Origin: an uncultured Alphaproteobacteria bacterium
Lineage (GTDB): Bacteria > Pseudomonadota > Alphaproteobacteria > RF32 > CAG-239
Direction of reading: 5' to 3'
Assembly: GCA_944389095.1 (NCBI GenBank)
Contig: CALXLC010000032.1
Coordinates: 1-60,521, forward strand
DNA: 60,521 nt
This document shows positions 12,638 through 60,237 of this stretch, piece after piece. The position numbers were made by a program, and so were the translations under genes. The number at the start of each line of letters is the position of its first letter. The stretch's first letter is position 1. A model generated the notes under the pieces. That model ran no database searches. It had not been told where the DNA came from and was given only the letters and a program-made list of their open reading frames with translations.

Positions 12638-12970
12638 TCAAATAATACTTTGCAGTCTTTCTTCTGAAATAAAACGCGGAAGTTGAGAAGAGGAGCCGTT
12701 TGGCCCGGGCTCAATCTCTCCCGGACGAGGTTCTATCCACGAAATATTGAGGATTTTTTCATACCGCAGCAGCAGGCAGACCAATTCGCTGAGGTGCATA
12801 TTGCTGCAAACGCGATAATTTCCCGCCTCCAGCAAAGCCAGCCGCTGCTTCGAAAACCGGGCGACCGCGAGAGCTTCTTCCGACGTTAATCCTGCGGACA
12901 ACCGAACCGCGCGAAGCTGTGCCCCGAGATTGCGATAAATTTTTTCTTTAATGTCAAAATTTGATTTCAT
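12638..12970 (-). CDS. XRE/Cro-like HTH protein (110 aa, divergent cassette cargo)
   Basis: LGAQLRAVRLSAGLTSEE…LALLEAGN; GGAG upstream of ATG 12970; shares a pattern with the 80-aa HTH of copies B-D. Confidence 0.75.
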   Translation of the reverse strand: MKSNFDIKEKIYRNLGAQLRAVRLSAGLTSEEALAVARFSKQRLALLEAGNYRVCSNMHLSELVCLLLRYEKILNISWIEPRPGEIEPGPNGSSSQLPRFISEERLQSII

Positions 12971-12996
12971 TTTGCAACTCCGTATTTGTTTTGAAT

Positions 12997-13169
12997 AAAA
13001 CAAAACCGCCTTGACTAAAAGTTAAGGCGGGGAGTTCACAACTGTTACAGTGACAGTCTGCCTTATTCGACATACGAATATGCTTATATCAGCAGCTCCC
13101 CAAATGAGGAGTTGTTATTTTACTGTAAGGAGCTGTGACACTCCGCCGTCCGCTCACCGGACGACAGAA
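12997..13169 (-). ncRNA. structured leader RNA, copy A (C4/CI-like architecture, inferred)
   Basis: 5' hairpin, GGGGAG/CTCCCC closing stem, CTGC/GCAG and ACTGT/ACAGT stems, terminal CCGCCTT/AAGGCGG stem plus U tract; compensatory changes relative to the other copies. Confidence 0.7.
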
Positions 13170-13171
13170 TT

Positions 13172-13199
13172 ATGATATAAGATGAAAATGATTTTGCAA
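13172..13199 (-). promoter_or_regulatory. sigma70-like promoter TTGCAA-N16-TATCAT (copy A)
   Basis: Both hexamers and the 16-bp spacing are kept in all four copies, even where the spacer sequence diverges (copy C). Confidence 0.7.
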
Positions 13200-33777: not shown

Positions 33778-34496
33778 TGTCTGGGATATGGAAACAACTG
33801 CTGAACGTTTTTTTGCCGCCGCGTTGCTTGAAATGCGGACGGATTGTTGAAAGCGGCGCGGCTTTGTGTCCGGACTGCTTTAATGAGATGCATTTTATCT
33901 CGGCGCCTTATTGTCAATGTTGCGGCCGGCCGTTTGAAAATGCAGAAAACAATACAGCCCTGCTGTGCGGAGAGTGTTTGCAAAAACGCCGAAAATTGCT
34001 GCGTATGAGCCGGGCGGCTTTTGTGTATAATGATGTCTCCAAACCGTTGGTGATTAATCTGAAGTTTCATGACAAAACCGAAAACGCCGGTGCTTTGGCG
34101 CAAATGATGTATGCTGCCGGACATGATATTTGGCAGGCTTCTGCGGATTTGATAATTCCGGTGCCGCTGCATTACCTGCGGTTGATAAAACGCCGTTATA
34201 ATCAGGCGGGGCTTTTGGCCGGATATGTCAGCCGTTACAGCGGCATTCCCGTCAATTACGATGTTTTGTGCCGTTGCCGTCACACCCGGCCGCAGGTTGA
34301 ATTTTCCGGTCATGCCCGGATAAAAAATGTCAAGAACGCCTTTGCCGTCAGACACCCCGAAAAAGTCAAAGGAAAAAGAATTGTGCTGGTGGATGACGTT
34401 ATGACAACCGGTTCCACGTTGCGGGAATGTGCCGTGGTTTTAAAAAAAGCCGGAGCCAAATCGGTTGACACCCTGACCGCCGCTCGCGTAATCTGA
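33777..34496 (+). CDS. comF: ComF-family double zinc-ribbon/PRTase protein
   Basis: Four CxxC pairs, PVPLH…RRYNQ, LVDDVMTTGST. Confidence 0.9.
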   Translation: MSGIWKQLLNVFLPPRCLKCGRIVESGAALCPDCFNEMHFISAPYCQCCGRPFENAENNTALLCGECLQKRRKLLRMSRAAFVYNDVSKPLVINLKFHDKTENAGALAQMMYAAGHDIWQASADLIIPVPLHYLRLIKRRYNQAGLLAGYVSRYSGIPVNYDVLCRCRHTRPQVEFSGHARIKNVKNAFAVRHPEKVKGKRIVLVDDVMTTGSTLRECAVVLKKAGAKSVDTLTAARVI

Positions 34497-34592
34497 AAAA
34501 GAACCGCAGTCGGATACGGAAATAATTTGCCTTCCGTTCAGCTTCTGCAGGTGACTTTTTTGTTGCAAAATCATTTTCATCTTATATCATAA

Positions 34593-34767
34593 TTCTGTCG
34601 TCCGGAGAGCGGACGGCGGAGTGTAGCAGCTCCAAATGACAAAAAGAACAACTCCTTAAATGGGGAGCCGGGGGAATAAGCATGTCTGCATGACGAAGAA
34701 CCCGGACTGTTCTGTCATACAGTTGCTAACTCCCCGCTTCGTTGTTGTAACGAAGCGGTTTTGTTTT
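34593..34767 (+). ncRNA. structured leader RNA, copy B
   Basis: Hairpin 34593-34621; TAGCA(34624)/TGCTA(34724) and ATGACA(34636)/TGTCAT(34713) pairs; terminator CCGCTTCGTT/AACGAAGCGG plus TTTTGTTTT. Confidence 0.7.
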
Positions 34768-34794
34768 AATCGAAACAAATTAAGGAGTTACAAA

Positions 34795-35037
34795 ATGTCA
34801 AACAACAAAGAAATGAAGGACTTGTCCCGCGGCGGCCGCCGGTTGGGACAGCAGCTTCACGACCTGAGAATATTCAATCGGTTAAGTATTGAGGAAGTCC
34901 ACGTCAAAACCGGCATACCCACCTGGTGGATAGACGCGATAGAGCTCGGCAACCGCGAACTGAGGCTTGAACATCTTTATGTTCTGGCCAAGTTGTATAA
35001 CCGGAAGGTGGTTATTTCTTTGGAAGACCGAGAATAA
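34795..35037 (+). CDS. XRE/Cro-like HTH protein (80 aa)
   Basis: AAGGAG RBS; LGQQLHDLRIFNRLSIEEVHVKTGIPTWWIDAIELGN; near-identical to 45524-45766 and 58263-58505. Confidence 0.85.
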   Translation: MSNNKEMKDLSRGGRRLGQQLHDLRIFNRLSIEEVHVKTGIPTWWIDAIELGNRELRLEHLYVLAKLYNRKVVISLEDRE

Positions 35038-35041
35038 ATAC

Positions 35042-35069
35042 AAAGGCCGGGAAAATTCCCGGCCTTTTT
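35042..35069. terminator. bidirectional terminator (cassette B / tkt)
   Basis: AAAGGCCGGGAA-AA-TTCCCGGCCTTTTT. Confidence 0.8.
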
Positions 35070-35083
35070 CAGAAAGCGGCGGA

Positions 35084-37048
35084 TTATTTCAGACAATTTT
35101 TAACAGCGTCAACCACTTCATCGATCGTAATGCCGAAGTATTTGTACAATTCTTCGGCCGGTCCCGAAGCGCCGAAACCGTCCATGCCGATAATATCGCC
35201 GTTTAAGCCGACATATTTTTCCCAGCCGAATTTGGAAGCGGCTTCCACCGCCACCCGGGGACAATTGCCCAAAACCTGCTCCTGATAATCGGGTGTCTGT
35301 GCATCAAAAAGTTCGGTGCAGGGCATGGAAACAACAGCGGTTTCAATACCTTCTTCTTTCAGTTTTTTCATGGCGTCAACAGCCAGAGAAACTTCCGAAC
35401 CGGTAGCGATAATCGTCGCCTGGCGCTTATCCGCGTTTCCGGCGATAACATAACCGCCTTTGGCCGTCAGATTTTCTTTGGCGGACGTCCTCAGCAGCGG
35501 CAGTCCCTGACGGGTTAAGGCCAGCAGGCTGGGTTTGTTGTCGGTTTCAAGAGCCGTTTGCCAGGCCTCGGCGGTCTCCACAACGTCGCAGGGACGGAAG
35601 GTCAGAATATTCGGCATGCAACGGTATGAGGCCAGATGTTCAATGGGCTGATGCGTCGGACCGTCTTCTCCGACACCGATGGAATCATGCGTCAGCACAT
35701 AAATAACGCGGATTCCCATAAGCGCGGCCAAACGCATCGACGGGCGCATATAGTCCGAAAAAACAAAAAACGTGCCGCCGAACGGAATAATACCGCCGTG
35801 CAGGGCCATGCCGTTCATAATGGCGCCCATCGCATGCTCGCGAATGCCGTACATAATGTTGTTGCCGCTATAATCGTCCTTGGTGACGGTTTTGGAAACC
35901 TTGGTCAGGGTCAGGTTAGAGGCCGCCAAATCCGCCGACCCGCCGACAATTTGCGGAATATGCGGAACAATGGCTTCCAGACACATCTGCGAGGCTTTGC
36001 GAGTGGCAACTTTGGTCTTTTCGGCAATTGCCGTTTCTTTAAGAGCATTTAATTCTTTATCCCAGCCGGCGGGAAGGCGACCTTCGATAATGTCACAAAA
36101 ATCTGAACCTTTGCTTTGAGCGCGTTTTTCCCATTCCGAATAGGCCTGTTCGCTGCGGGCCCCCGCCATCCGCCAGGCATTCAGCACTTCTGTCGGAATT
36201 TCAAACGGCGGATAATTCCAGTCCAAAGCCTGTCTCATGGCCGCCAGTTCTTCCGCGCCCAACGGAGAACCGTGACATTTCGACGTGCCGCATTTGGTCG
36301 GAGCGCCGTACCCGATTTTGGTTTTGCAGGCAATCAGGACCGGGCGGTCGGAAGCTCGTGCCGTTTGAATAGCCTGACGGATGGCGTCGTAATCATGGCC
36401 GTCAATCTCCAGCGTATTCCAGCCCACGGCCTGAAAACGCTTAATCTGATCGGTTGAATTGGCATCGGTAACATGACCGTCAATGGTGATATTGTTGTTG
36501 TCCCAAAAAACAACCAGTTTGTTTAATTTCCAATGACCGGCCAGCGAAATCGCTTCTTCCGAAATTCCTTCCATCAGACAGCCGTCCCCGGCAATTACAT
36601 AGGTATAATGGTTGCAGACATCCTCGCCGTATTTGGCGGCCAAAATCCTTTCGGCCAAAGCCATGCCGACGGCGGAACTGATACCCTGTCCCAGCGGTCC
36701 GGTTGTCATGTCAATACCGACCAGATGCCCGTATTCCGGGTGGCCGGCGGTTTTGGCGCCGAGCTGCCGGAAATTTTTAATGTCTTCAAGCGTAATGTCT
36801 TCATAACCCATGAGGTACAGCAGCGAATAAAGCAGCATGGAACCGTGTCCGGCCGACAGAACAAAACGGTCGCGGTCGAACCAGCGCGGATGTTGGGGAC
36901 TGAGCTTGATGAATTCAGAAAAAAGAACCGTGGCGACATCGGCCATTCCCAGCGGCATGCCGGGATGTCCCGATTTGGATTTTTCGATTGCATCCGCAGA
37001 CAAAAAGCGGATAGCGTTAGCCATTTTGGATTCTGAATTTATGTTCAT
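35084..37048 (-). CDS. tkt: transketolase
   Basis: SGHPGMPLG, RDRFVLSAGHGSML, GDGCLMEG, THDSIGVGEDGPTHQP. Confidence 0.97.
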   Translation of the reverse strand: MNINSESKMANAIRFLSADAIEKSKSGHPGMPLGMADVATVLFSEFIKLSPQHPRWFDRDRFVLSAGHGSMLLYSLLYLMGYEDITLEDIKNFRQLGAKTAGHPEYGHLVGIDMTTGPLGQGISSAVGMALAERILAAKYGEDVCNHYTYVIAGDGCLMEGISEEAISLAGHWKLNKLVVFWDNNNITIDGHVTDANSTDQIKRFQAVGWNTLEIDGHDYDAIRQAIQTARASDRPVLIACKTKIGYGAPTKCGTSKCHGSPLGAEELAAMRQALDWNYPPFEIPTEVLNAWRMAGARSEQAYSEWEKRAQSKGSDFCDIIEGRLPAGWDKELNALKETAIAEKTKVATRKASQMCLEAIVPHIPQIVGGSADLAASNLTLTKVSKTVTKDDYSGNNIMYGIREHAMGAIMNGMALHGGIIPFGGTFFVFSDYMRPSMRLAALMGIRVIYVLTHDSIGVGEDGPTHQPIEHLASYRCMPNILTFRPCDVVETAEAWQTALETDNKPSLLALTRQGLPLLRTSAKENLTAKGGYVIAGNADKRQATIIATGSEVSLAVDAMKKLKEEGIETAVVSMPCTELFDAQTPDYQEQVLGNCPRVAVEAASKFGWEKYVGLNGDIIGMDGFGASGPAEELYKYFGITIDEVVDAVKNCLK

Positions 37049-45523: not shown

Positions 45524-45766
45524 TTATTCTCTGTCTTCCAAAGAAATAACCACCTTTCGGTTATATAACTTGGCCAGAACATAAAGATGTTCAAGCCTCA
45601 GTTCGCGGTTGCCGAGTTCTATCGCGTCTATCCACCAGGTGGGTATGCCGGTTTTGACGTGAACTTCCTCAATGCTTAAGCGATTGAATATTCTCAGGTC
45701 GTGAAGCTGTTGTCCCAACCGGCGGCCGCCGCGGGACAAGTCCTTCATTGCTTTGTTGTTTGACAT
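45524..45766 (-). CDS. XRE/Cro-like HTH protein (80 aa)
   Basis: Protein identical to that of 58263-58505; GGAG RBS. Confidence 0.85.
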   Translation of the reverse strand: MSNNKAMKDLSRGGRRLGQQLHDLRIFNRLSIEEVHVKTGIPTWWIDAIELGNRELRLEHLYVLAKLYNRKVVISLEDRE

Positions 45767-45791
45767 TTGTAACTCCATATTTGTTTTAGGT

Positions 45792-45963
45792 AAAACAAAA
45801 CCGCCTTAAGCAACGTCAAGGCGGGGAGTTAAGAACTGTTACAGTGACAGTCTGCCTTATTCGACATACGAATATGCTTATATCGACAGCTCCCCGAAAG
45901 AGGAGTTGTTTTTTACTGTAAAGGAGTTCTTACACTCCGCCGTCCGCTCACCGGACGACGGAA
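45792..45963 (-). ncRNA. structured leader RNA, copy C
   Basis: TAAGA/TCTTA and TTACAGT/ACTGTAA pairs; same stems as the other copies. Confidence 0.7.
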
Positions 45964-46065
45964 TCATGATAATAAATCAAAGCGATTTTGCAACAAAAAA
46001 ATAAAGGCCCAAACCGAAAACGGTTTGAACCTACTATTTTACTCTCAACCTATACCATAGCAGTA

Positions 46066-46247
46066 AAAAAGTGGAATATTTTCCACCGCCGCTTAAGTTA
46101 CGCCCGTGGCGCTGCCACCAGAAAAGTGGAAGCCTCTCCACATCCGCTTAGATATTGCCAGTGGCGCTGCCACCGCGCGCCCACCTAAAGATTATTTAGG
46201 CAGCCAGTCTTCGCTCACGCCGTGCGTGCCAGTGGCGCTGCCACCGC
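46066..46247. repeat. REP-like palindromic repeat cluster
   Basis: GTGGC-GCT-GCCACC at 46106, 46161 and 46232; AAAAGTGGA…TCCAC..CCGCTTA occurs twice with a 55-bp period. Confidence 0.65.
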
Positions 46248-46261
46248 TCCCACCGTGTGGG

Positions 46262-58005: not shown

Positions 58006-58066
58006 TGGATTGAGCGGGGCGAAAAAGTTTTTTCTGTTGCAAAATCATTTTCATCTTATATCATAA

Positions 58067-58236
58067 TTCCGTCGTCCGGTGAGCGGACGATGGAGTGTCA
58101 CAGCTCCTTCACGAAACGAACAACTCCTTAGATGGGGAGCCGGGGGAATAAGCATGCCTGCATGACGAAGAACCCGGACTGTTCGTGAACAGTTGTGAAC
58201 TCCCCGCCTTAACGTTGTTTAAGGCGGTTTTGTTTT
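58067..58236 (+). ncRNA. structured leader RNA, copy D
   Basis: TCACA(58098)/TGTGA(58194) and TTCACGAA(58108)/TTCGTGAA(58182) pairs; terminator CCGCCTTAA/TTAAGGCGG plus TTTTGTTTT. Confidence 0.7.
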
Positions 58237-58262
58237 AATCGAAACAAATATGGAGTTACAAA

Positions 58263-58505
58263 ATGTCAAACAACAAAGCAATGAAGGACTTATCTCGCGG
58301 CGGCCGCCGGTTGGGACAGCAGCTTCACGACCTGAGAATATTCAATCGCTTAAGTATTGAGGAAGTCCACGTCAAAACCGGCATACCCACCTGGTGGATA
58401 GACGCGATAGAACTCGGCAACCGCGAGCTGAGACTGGAACATCTTTATGTTCTGGCCAAGTTGTATAACCGGAAGGTGGTTATTTCTTTGGAAGACCGAG
58501 AATAA
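58263..58505 (+). CDS. XRE/Cro-like HTH protein (80 aa)
   Basis: GGAG RBS; same protein as copy C and one residue different from copy B. Confidence 0.85.
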   Translation: MSNNKAMKDLSRGGRRLGQQLHDLRIFNRLSIEEVHVKTGIPTWWIDAIELGNRELRLEHLYVLAKLYNRKVVISLEDRE

Positions 58506-60162: not shown

Positions 60163-60237
60163 GCCGCTGTAGCTCAGTGGTAGAGCACGTCATTGGTAAT
60201 GACGGGGTCGCAAGTCCGATTCTTGCCAGCGGCACCA
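60163..60237 (+). tRNA. tRNA-Thr(GGT)
   Basis: Full cloverleaf: GCCGCTG/CAGCGGC acceptor stem, CGTCA-TTGGTAA-TGACG anticodon arm, encoded CCA. Confidence 0.95.

Follow-up and report, generated by a model that had tools for sequence, protein, structure and literature searches.

The 60,521-nt stretch of DNA analysed here (the window; contig CALXLC010000032.1 of assembly GCA_944389095.1, from an uncultured alphaproteobacterium of the CAG-239 lineage) contains four copies of a structured leader RNA, each located in front of a small gene for a helix–turn–helix (HTH) protein. The copies lie at 13172-12985 (−), 34590-34779 (+), 45966-45780 (−) and 58064-58248 (+); a 19-base leader probe has four matches in the window, against 0.02 expected. 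The copy under study, the leader at 34597-34767 (+), belongs to a complete module at 34563-35067 (Table 1). Each module is a self-contained transcription unit with a leader of about 170 nt, and the arrangement of promoter, structured leader and terminator with U-tract directly before the ribosome-binding site (RBS) is kept in all full copies. In every copy the spacer that separates the −35 and −10 hexamers of the module promoter contains the palindrome AAAATCATTTT, a possible operator for the HTH protein; the P1 hairpin is probably the start of the transcript. The first two C of the leader terminator are common to the 3′ strand of helix P3, and the C2 element (AACUCC) is complementary to both the 5′ strand of P3 and the RBS GGAGUU. 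The stretch from terminator to start codon is nearly invariant among the copies.

Table 1. Features of the module under study and of the three paralogous modules, in window coordinates
Feature	Position	Strand	Basis or remark
Sigma-70-like promoter, TTGCAA-16-TATCAT	34563-34590	+	Promoter scan; upstream block conserved in all copies
P1, 8-bp 5′ hairpin	34597-34617	+	7/8 pairs change on both sides (98 distinct rows)
P2, GGAG/CUCC hairpin, 8-nt loop with segment a (TAGCA, 34624-34628)	34618-34633	+	Alignment; position of a1 in phage P1 c4-a1b1
Segment b (ATGACA), single-stranded, just 3′ of P2	34636-34641	+	Alignment
A-rich (AAN)4 run and conserved AACUCC element (C2)	34642-34657	+	Read from the sequence; minimum free energy folds
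C4/sRNA-Xcc1-like core (P3, P4-P5, P6, b′, a′)	34662-34735	+	Alignment, covariation, sub-threshold RF02221 matches on 8 paralogous cores
P3 closing stem, GGGGAG/CUCCCC	inside core 34662-34735	+	
P4-P5 hairpin with conserved AAUAAG/CGAAGAA internal loop	inside core 34662-34735	+	
P6 hairpin, ACUGU/ACAGU, with b′ (TGTCAT) in loop	inside core; b′ at 34713-34718	+	
a′ (TGCTA), between P6 and the 3′ strand of P3	inside core; 34724-34728	+	
Intrinsic terminator, 11-bp stem and TTTTGTTTT tail	34734-34767	+	Terminator scan
RBS GGAGTT and 80-aa XRE-like HTH open reading frame	34784-35037	+	ATG at 34795, stop ends at 35037
Module-ending terminator, A-tract/hairpin/T-tract	35042-35067	.	Conserved among copies
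Paralogous module	12638-13172	−	RNA 13172-12985, code TCACA + TTACAGT; 110-aa HTH frame 12970-12638
Paralogous module	45524-45966	−	RNA 45966-45780, code TAAGA + TTACAGT; 80-aa HTH frame 45766-45524
Paralogous module	58064-58505	+	RNA 58064-58248, code TCACA + TTCACGAA; 80-aa HTH frame 58263-58505

The leader carries two short 5′ segments, a and b, each of which is complementary to a downstream segment of the same RNA (a′ and b′), and the four segments differ from copy to copy. In the window the codes (a/a′ and b/b′) are TCACA/TGTGA with TTACAGT/ACTGTAA, TAGCA/TGCTA with ATGACA/TGTCAT, TAAGA/TCTTA with TTACAGT/ACTGTAA, and TCACA/TGTGA with TTCACGAA/TTCGTGAA. The alignments returned these segments exactly as the original prediction, made from the four copies, had listed them, with b′ in the loop of a near-invariant ACTGT...ACAGT hairpin and a′ directly before CTCCCC. 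Co-variation of other stems, also part of that prediction, was borne out (CTGC/GCAG versus CCGGG/CCCGG, in which 4/5 pairs change on both sides, and the 5′ hairpin, 4/8).

A profile search with nhmmer of the 1.55-Mb, 60-contig genome of the window (G000) found 16 places. Of these, 15 are full copies, 14 of them nearly identical and one divergent (C39), and the last (C15) is truncated. A covariance model, R1, was built from the 15 full copies and gave at least 350 matches in related genomes, 150 of them listed; 101 copies from seven genomes were aligned. These genomes were chosen for many listed matches and are not a random sample; the copies analysed and the places found number 15/17 in G000, 13/15 in G043, 17/21 in G039, 18/25 (scored) in G031, 18/25 in G053, 16/25 in G024 and 4/19 in G028.

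Both pairings are kept in 14/15 full copies of the window's genome; the exception, C19, is a mosaic whose 5′ half is like one paralog and whose 3′ half is like another. In the larger set, which had been proposed as the place to look for a breakdown of complementarity, the pairing holds: helices of at least 5 bp are formed by a:a′ in 97/101 copies, by b:b′ in 98/101 and by both in 96/101, and the five failing copies all look like recombinants or single mismatches. Non-cognate partners pair at 4.0% (a) and 16.7% (b). The five a:a′ pairs of alignment A5 are 98.8% paired; four of the five change on both sides and one shows all four Watson–Crick types. The covariation observed over the whole structure was reached by none of 500 shuffles. 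The 101 copies contain 19 a′ segments, 40 b′ loops and 74 combinations. A self-complementary code far beyond chance is confirmed, and the codes are largely orthogonal.

The core helices are 97-99% paired in alignments A3 and A5. P2, P3 and P6 are nearly invariant; P1, P4, P5, the terminator, a:a′ and b:b′ vary freely. Identity amounts to 64% for a/a′, 43-45% for b/b′, 52% for P5, 66% for the terminator and 70% for P4, so that a and b fall inside the range of the other free stems. The internal loop between P4 and P5 is 90% identical within genomes.

The sequence data support the assignment of the leader family to a divergent, terminator-coupled branch of the C4/sRNA-Xcc1 kind. With the sRNA-Xcc1 model RF02221, at E ≤ 10, nine places are found in the window's genome, eight of which are cores of leader copies (16.2-19.7 bits; the cut-off is 53), the cores making up less than 0.1% of the sequence searched; the copy at 34597-34767 is itself not among the eight. 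The ninth and top-scoring place, C27:524-591, is apparently coding sequence beside an HTH-gene remnant and was treated as spurious. Model R1 also picks out 12 loci from five further families within the class or order; RF02221 scores 27.9-41.6 bits at 8/12 of these loci, and C4 scores 28.4 bits at one. The Rfam check proposed in the original prediction, with the C4, c4-2 and c4-a1b1 models, gave no match at E ≤ 10 on positions 34400-34900 of the window, where only chance-level matches to other models appeared; phage P1, as a positive control, scored 68.8 and 51.0 bits with RF01695 and RF03163. A whole-genome search with RF01695 returned one 15.4-bit place, unrelated to the copies. The sole Rfam match at the gathering score in the window is a tRNA gene at 60163-60234 (70.9 bits).

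The likeness to C4 and CI immunity RNAs that had been noticed in the window holds at the level of architecture, including the a1/b1 layout, and kinship in sequence is suggested by this architecture together with the clustered weak matches. The second pair of C4 target sites, a2 and b2, is absent: a copy's own a followed by its own b within 45 nt, between the terminator and +160, was found in 0/96 matched copies, and the single-site rates equal the non-cognate background. For the further idea of a short bipartite guide, a search confined to the roughly 160 nt that follow each core turned up no second target.

Genuine sRNA-Xcc1 loci are represented by a sample of 25 (L143-L167; 52.6-76.5 bits, 24/25 above the 53-bit cut-off) from 151 genomes of the phylum, 24 of which have an above-cut-off match. 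In 22/25 loci there is an upstream a1 (6-11 nt, near −95) that is complementary to the junction, and 9-17 nt beyond it a b1 (5-8 nt) that is complementary to the hairpin-B loop; the longest matches average 8.96 nt for cognate and 6.17 nt for non-cognate partners. Counted by eye, a2 and b2 flank the Shine–Dalgarno (SD) sequence of the next open reading frame (ORF) in about 16/25 loci. Five ORFs behind loci bearing a2/b2 were scanned, and four of them match Bro-N (one just under the cut-off) or Phage_pRha. Judged by these predicted sites and genes, sRNA-Xcc1 loci are C4-like in behaviour. The C4 clan of the Rfam tables used does not include RF02221.

Since the 5′ arm of the leader, with GGAG, a and b, can pair with the b′, a′ and CUCC of the core's 3′ arm, two mutually exclusive folds are possible. 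The minimum free energy (MFE) structure calculated with ViennaRNA is a rod, in which GGAG pairs with the CUCC of the P3 3′ strand in 97/101 copies, extended a:a′ pairing is present in 96/101 and extended b:b′ pairing in 100/101; AACUCC is also paired with GGGGAG, and the full-length terminator forms. In the copy at 34597-34767 the rod has 24 bp in four helices, a:a′ and b:b′ being placed between the constant helices GGAGU:ACUCC and GAACA:UGUUC. The rod lies below the nested cloverleaf by 15.9-27.2 kcal/mol in 13/15 copies of G000, with loop–loop contacts not counted; in the two others the difference is 7.9 (C19, mismatched) and 45.3 (C39, divergent, with a poor fit to the cloverleaf columns). 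The near invariance of P2, P3 and P6, while other stems vary, is what would be expected if each of their strands had two partners.

We favour the reading that the leader is a divergent, terminator-coupled RNA of the C4/sRNA-Xcc1 type with two mutually exclusive folds, and give it a probability of roughly 0.55. In the rod, the 5′ arm would lie on the 3′ arm of the core and C2 on GGGGAG, the full 10-11-bp terminator would form and both anti-SD-like elements would be occupied. In the alternative, a C4-like cloverleaf (P2, P3, P6), a′ and b′ would be exposed, the terminator would lose its two basal G–C pairs, leaving a GG spacer before the U-tract, and AACUCC would be free to pair with the RBS GGAGUU. 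The RBS GGAGTT is present in most ORF contexts of 26 relatives (by eye, untallied), and in one relative, L040, C2 and the RBS both differ together (also read by eye). From these structures we infer a switch in which the balance between rod and cloverleaf would set read-through and translation of the small HTH gene. By analogy with the CI RNA of phage P4 acting on seqA, a core freed from terminated transcripts might bind the 5′ arm of nascent transcripts with the same code, producing code-specific feedback; as only a and b vary, the codes would keep near-identical paralogous leaders from pairing with each other.

Several observations weigh against this proposal. P2, P3 and P6, the helices of the cloverleaf, are all but fixed in this family and so have no covariation support, and P3 is present in the MFE structure of 0/101 copies. 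The overlap of P3 with the terminator is only 2 nt and is the sole overlap found by which a fold might exclude the terminator; the nested energies exclude pseudoknot terms. A by-eye search for the complement of the terminator 5′ strand found no antiterminator covarying with the terminator. No RNA family was found on any copy of the genome at the Rfam gathering score, which, together with the missing a2/b2 sites, is where the comparison with C4 and CI in the original prediction falls short, and R1, run with filters off on the immI region of phage P1, gave nothing meaningful. Public RNA runs were looked through for positions 34300-35100 of the window, and none listed covers them. In other families of the class, leaders of this type precede genes of other kinds, including those for lipoproteins and membrane proteins, a placement more in keeping with a general cis-acting leader than with an immunity RNA. 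Selection for independent addressing by distinct combinations is not demonstrated: pairs with an identical a+b combination within genomes number 4, against 6.4 expected under random a–b pairing (P = 0.21), in a test where assembly collapse of identical repeats could hide duplicates. That all four combinations in the window differ is correct and carries no weight. One antiterminator candidate, GGCGG:CCGCC, was rejected, showing no covariation with CCACC variants of the terminator.

The best-surviving rival, possible if on the unlikely side, is a purely cis-acting leader. Here a:a′ and b:b′ would be parts of one interrupted stem, the rod, in a 5′ untranslated region or attenuator, free to drift and be shuffled by gene conversion as long as they pair, and there would be no cloverleaf, processing or action in trans. 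Such a leader is consistent with the rod as the MFE structure in 96-100 of the 101 copies, where a:a′ and b:b′ form one nested long helix, as well as with the ordinary variability of a and b, the assortment of combinations as under random pairing and the variety of genes behind the leader in other families. It also bears on the suggestion that the codes serve independent control of the paralogous cassettes, since the largely orthogonal codes fit that suggestion, but distinct combinations are not enriched and the rod helix is fitted equally well by action in cis only. Three features are left unexplained by a cis-only leader: the strands of P2, P3 and P6 are invariant and yet can pair with each other in a second register, the core scores with the sRNA-Xcc1 model, which has a cloverleaf consensus, and the conserved internal loop of the core is common to sRNA-Xcc1.

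The codes turn over between closely related genomes. Nine sites were compared with the sister genome G043 (flanks 92-99% identical): the code is shared at four and differs at five, among them the site of the copy at 34597-34767, coded TAGCA+ATGACA here and TGACA+ACATAAG in G043. The codes at the five changed sites are mostly known from other sites, and one code occupies different sites in the two genomes, which points to exchange between copies and not to slow compensatory drift. The occasional chimeric leaders would be by-products of such exchange. At its furthest, the two-fold reading would extend to a genus-wide library of dozens of orthogonal, self-addressed switches, in which a processed core would act in trans only on nascent leaders with its own a+b code and so confer code-specific immunity, 15 to 25 or more almost identical HTH genes would be switched independently and recombination would mint new addresses; we consider this extension distinctly doubtful.

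A ligand- or protein-sensing attenuator resembling a riboswitch, with the P4/P5 internal loop as the sensor and a:a′ and b:b′ as scaffold helices, is improbable. The high conservation of this loop, which is common to sRNA-Xcc1, and the presence of a terminator and RBS as an expression platform are compatible with it; however, no link to metabolic genes is seen, the loop also occurs in phage- and island-borne relatives controlling Bro-N and Rha genes, and P5 is missing in some members (L037, L039). Slightly less probable still is a trans-acting small RNA whose a′/b′ (or a/b) would recognise unlinked mRNAs, as others have suggested for sRNA-Xcc1, self-complementarity only masking the seed: hfq is present in the window's genome, an (AAN)4 run follows b, and sRNA-Xcc1 is reported (PMC2996969) as an RNA of about 88 nt on Northern blots with many predicted targets, but the partners of a′ and b′ lie in the same transcript in genuine sRNA-Xcc1 loci (a1/b1 in 22/25, a2/b2 in about 16/25), the only matching partner found here, in the leader and about 160 nt downstream with no genome-wide target search, is the copy's own 5′ arm, and sister species differ in code at orthologous sites, a turnover with which unlinked targets could not keep pace.

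The modules make up about 1% of the genes in the window's genome. Of 101 related genomes, 49 have R1 matches, among them 40 of the 55 species from the window's own genus, and as many as 25 matches were scored in a single genome. Each of the 15 modules follows a gene on its own strand; the next gene is on the contig in 11 cases and is convergent in all 11. Each full-length HTH gene in the genome immediately follows an RNA copy, apart from pieces at contig ends and a 35-residue remnant that has no leader (G000 C27:331-435). In other species of the genus and family an HTH ORF follows the RNA in 26/32 matches, and these proteins are very divergent, 72-161 aa in length. In the window's genome the HTH proteins have 80 or 110-118 aa and are XRE-like. 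Scans of the HTH protein against Pfam, NCBIfam, PHROGs and PADLOC gave only weak, sub-threshold matches; Pfam HTH_31 scores 19.3 and 26.2 bits, the cut-off being 27.

Loci from other families (L131, L136, L141, L132, L138, L134, L135, L137) have the 5′ arm, the sRNA-Xcc1-like core, the terminator and the RBS before genes for predicted lipoproteins, membrane proteins, prepilin-like and beta-barrel-like proteins. The truncated copy at G000 C15:11600-11701 (L011) is a 5′ leader fragment with the promoter, P1 and segments a and b coded like the 45-kb window copy, followed by unrelated sequence. In two other species (L018:1444-1909 and L029:1501-1898) one leader follows another in tandem, at distances of 95 and 34 nt and without an intervening HTH ORF, and each RNA of L018 is succeeded by a further conserved stretch of about 90 nt. 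The counterpart of the 45-kb module site in G043 (G043:C74:14162-15870; L168, L169) has the same genes on either side, with about 1.7 kb between them in place of the roughly 0.6 kb found here. Inspection of the module ends by eye showed neither the terminal inverted repeats nor the target duplications that a mobile element might have. A second repeat family, with units of about 55 nt arranged in tandem around the palindromic core GGTGGCAGCGCCAC, is located at 46040-46260 of the window, at G000 C33:20688-20947, C13:9098-9281, C48:4532-4645 and C37:21392-21665, and on dozens of contigs; it has a REP-like look and often lies just upstream of module promoters.

If the two-fold reading is right, the modules would be a very abundant unannotated element of small-genome, gut-type proteobacteria, tied to the C4/sRNA-Xcc1 RNAs of phages and islands. 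The a1/b1 and a2/b2 sites of sRNA-Xcc1 loci would be established by computation; no statement of them was found in the accessible literature, the key 2011 paper and supplements aside. With about 19 variants of a′ and 40 of b′ set in an unchanging scaffold, the modules would make the specificity rules of short bipartite RNA–RNA recognition directly testable and could be a ready source of orthogonal RNA regulators. Neither Rfam 15 nor the literature covered, including the accessible parts of PMC2864571 and PMC5737381 and excluding supplementary material, was found to contain a terminator-coupled, many-copy form that lacks a2/b2 and is tied to HTH genes. Fifteen candidate structured RNAs upstream of HTH_XRE genes are described from human microbiomes in PMC8040213, and the leader family may be among them.

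The closest layout among known systems is that of phage P1 C4 (RF01695) with c4-a1b1 (RF03163; clan CL00128), in which the parts follow the same order, element by element. The C4 precursor is processed by RNase P to an RNA of about 77 nt. According to the annotated phage P1 record, a promoter is followed by a hairpin, a 4-bp hairpin with a1 in an 8-nt loop, b1 placed 7 nt after a1, and the C4 RNA. The C4 consensus has a closing stem, a UUCG hairpin, a hairpin with b′ in the loop and a 7-nt single strand with a′ before the closing strand; the annotated phage P1 RNA has 77 nt and the core here has 74 nt. The order and place of the a:a′ and b:b′ partners match the a1/b1 annotation, and the core has the C4 architecture, with P3 and P6 compatible but nearly invariant. 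In C4 of phages P1 and P7, too, two short segments set specificity. Unlike C4, the window family has no a2/b2 at the RBS, its terminator is fused to the core and an HTH gene takes the place of icd/ant. C4 controls an antirepressor in the immunity region of a prophage, whereas the modules are chromosomal, located between convergent genes and present in at least 15 copies per 1.55 Mb.

As for sRNA-Xcc1, this RNA is known from Xanthomonas integron cassettes, plasmids, Xylella islands and APSE phages. Its consensus shares with the window family the core fold and the AAUA.../GAAUAA internal loop, and some hosts have several copies per genome, as here; seven copies, five of them clustered, are described for Xylella in PMC12189769. 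The differences are that the window family lacks a2-SD-b2 before the ORF and that no terminator was seen between core and ORF in the genuine sRNA-Xcc1 loci inspected, an unsystematic check. The partner genes of sRNA-Xcc1 are those for Bro-N and Rha and, according to bioRxiv 10.1101/2025.06.18.660453, symE.

Two further systems combine such RNAs with termination. Section 21 of PMC4825925 describes the CI RNA of phage P4 as made from the leader of its own operon; on the nascent transcript it pairs with the sites seqA and seqC, which leads to premature termination. As with the window leader, and comparing by description only, CI is complementary to an upstream site in the same transcript; phage P4 also uses the downstream seqC, unlike the window family, in which pairing-dependent termination would be expected from the predicted folds. 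Gifsy-1 IsrK (RF01394), according to the same source, is a 5′ RNA of the a1/b1 type that ends at a Rho-independent terminator and has short and read-through isoforms, with a complementary processed RNA lying downstream. The isrK model matches the a1/b1 region of phage P1. The terminator of IsrK is situated between the a1/b1 and C4-like parts, whereas that of the window family comes after the core. The kind of RNA is known, from C4 with a1/b1, sRNA-Xcc1, CI of phage P4 and IsrK; what appears to be new is its terminator-coupled form without a2/b2, its one-to-one tie to an HTH gene, its 15 to 25 or more dispersed copies in genomes of 1.4-1.7 Mb and its dozens of shuffled codes.

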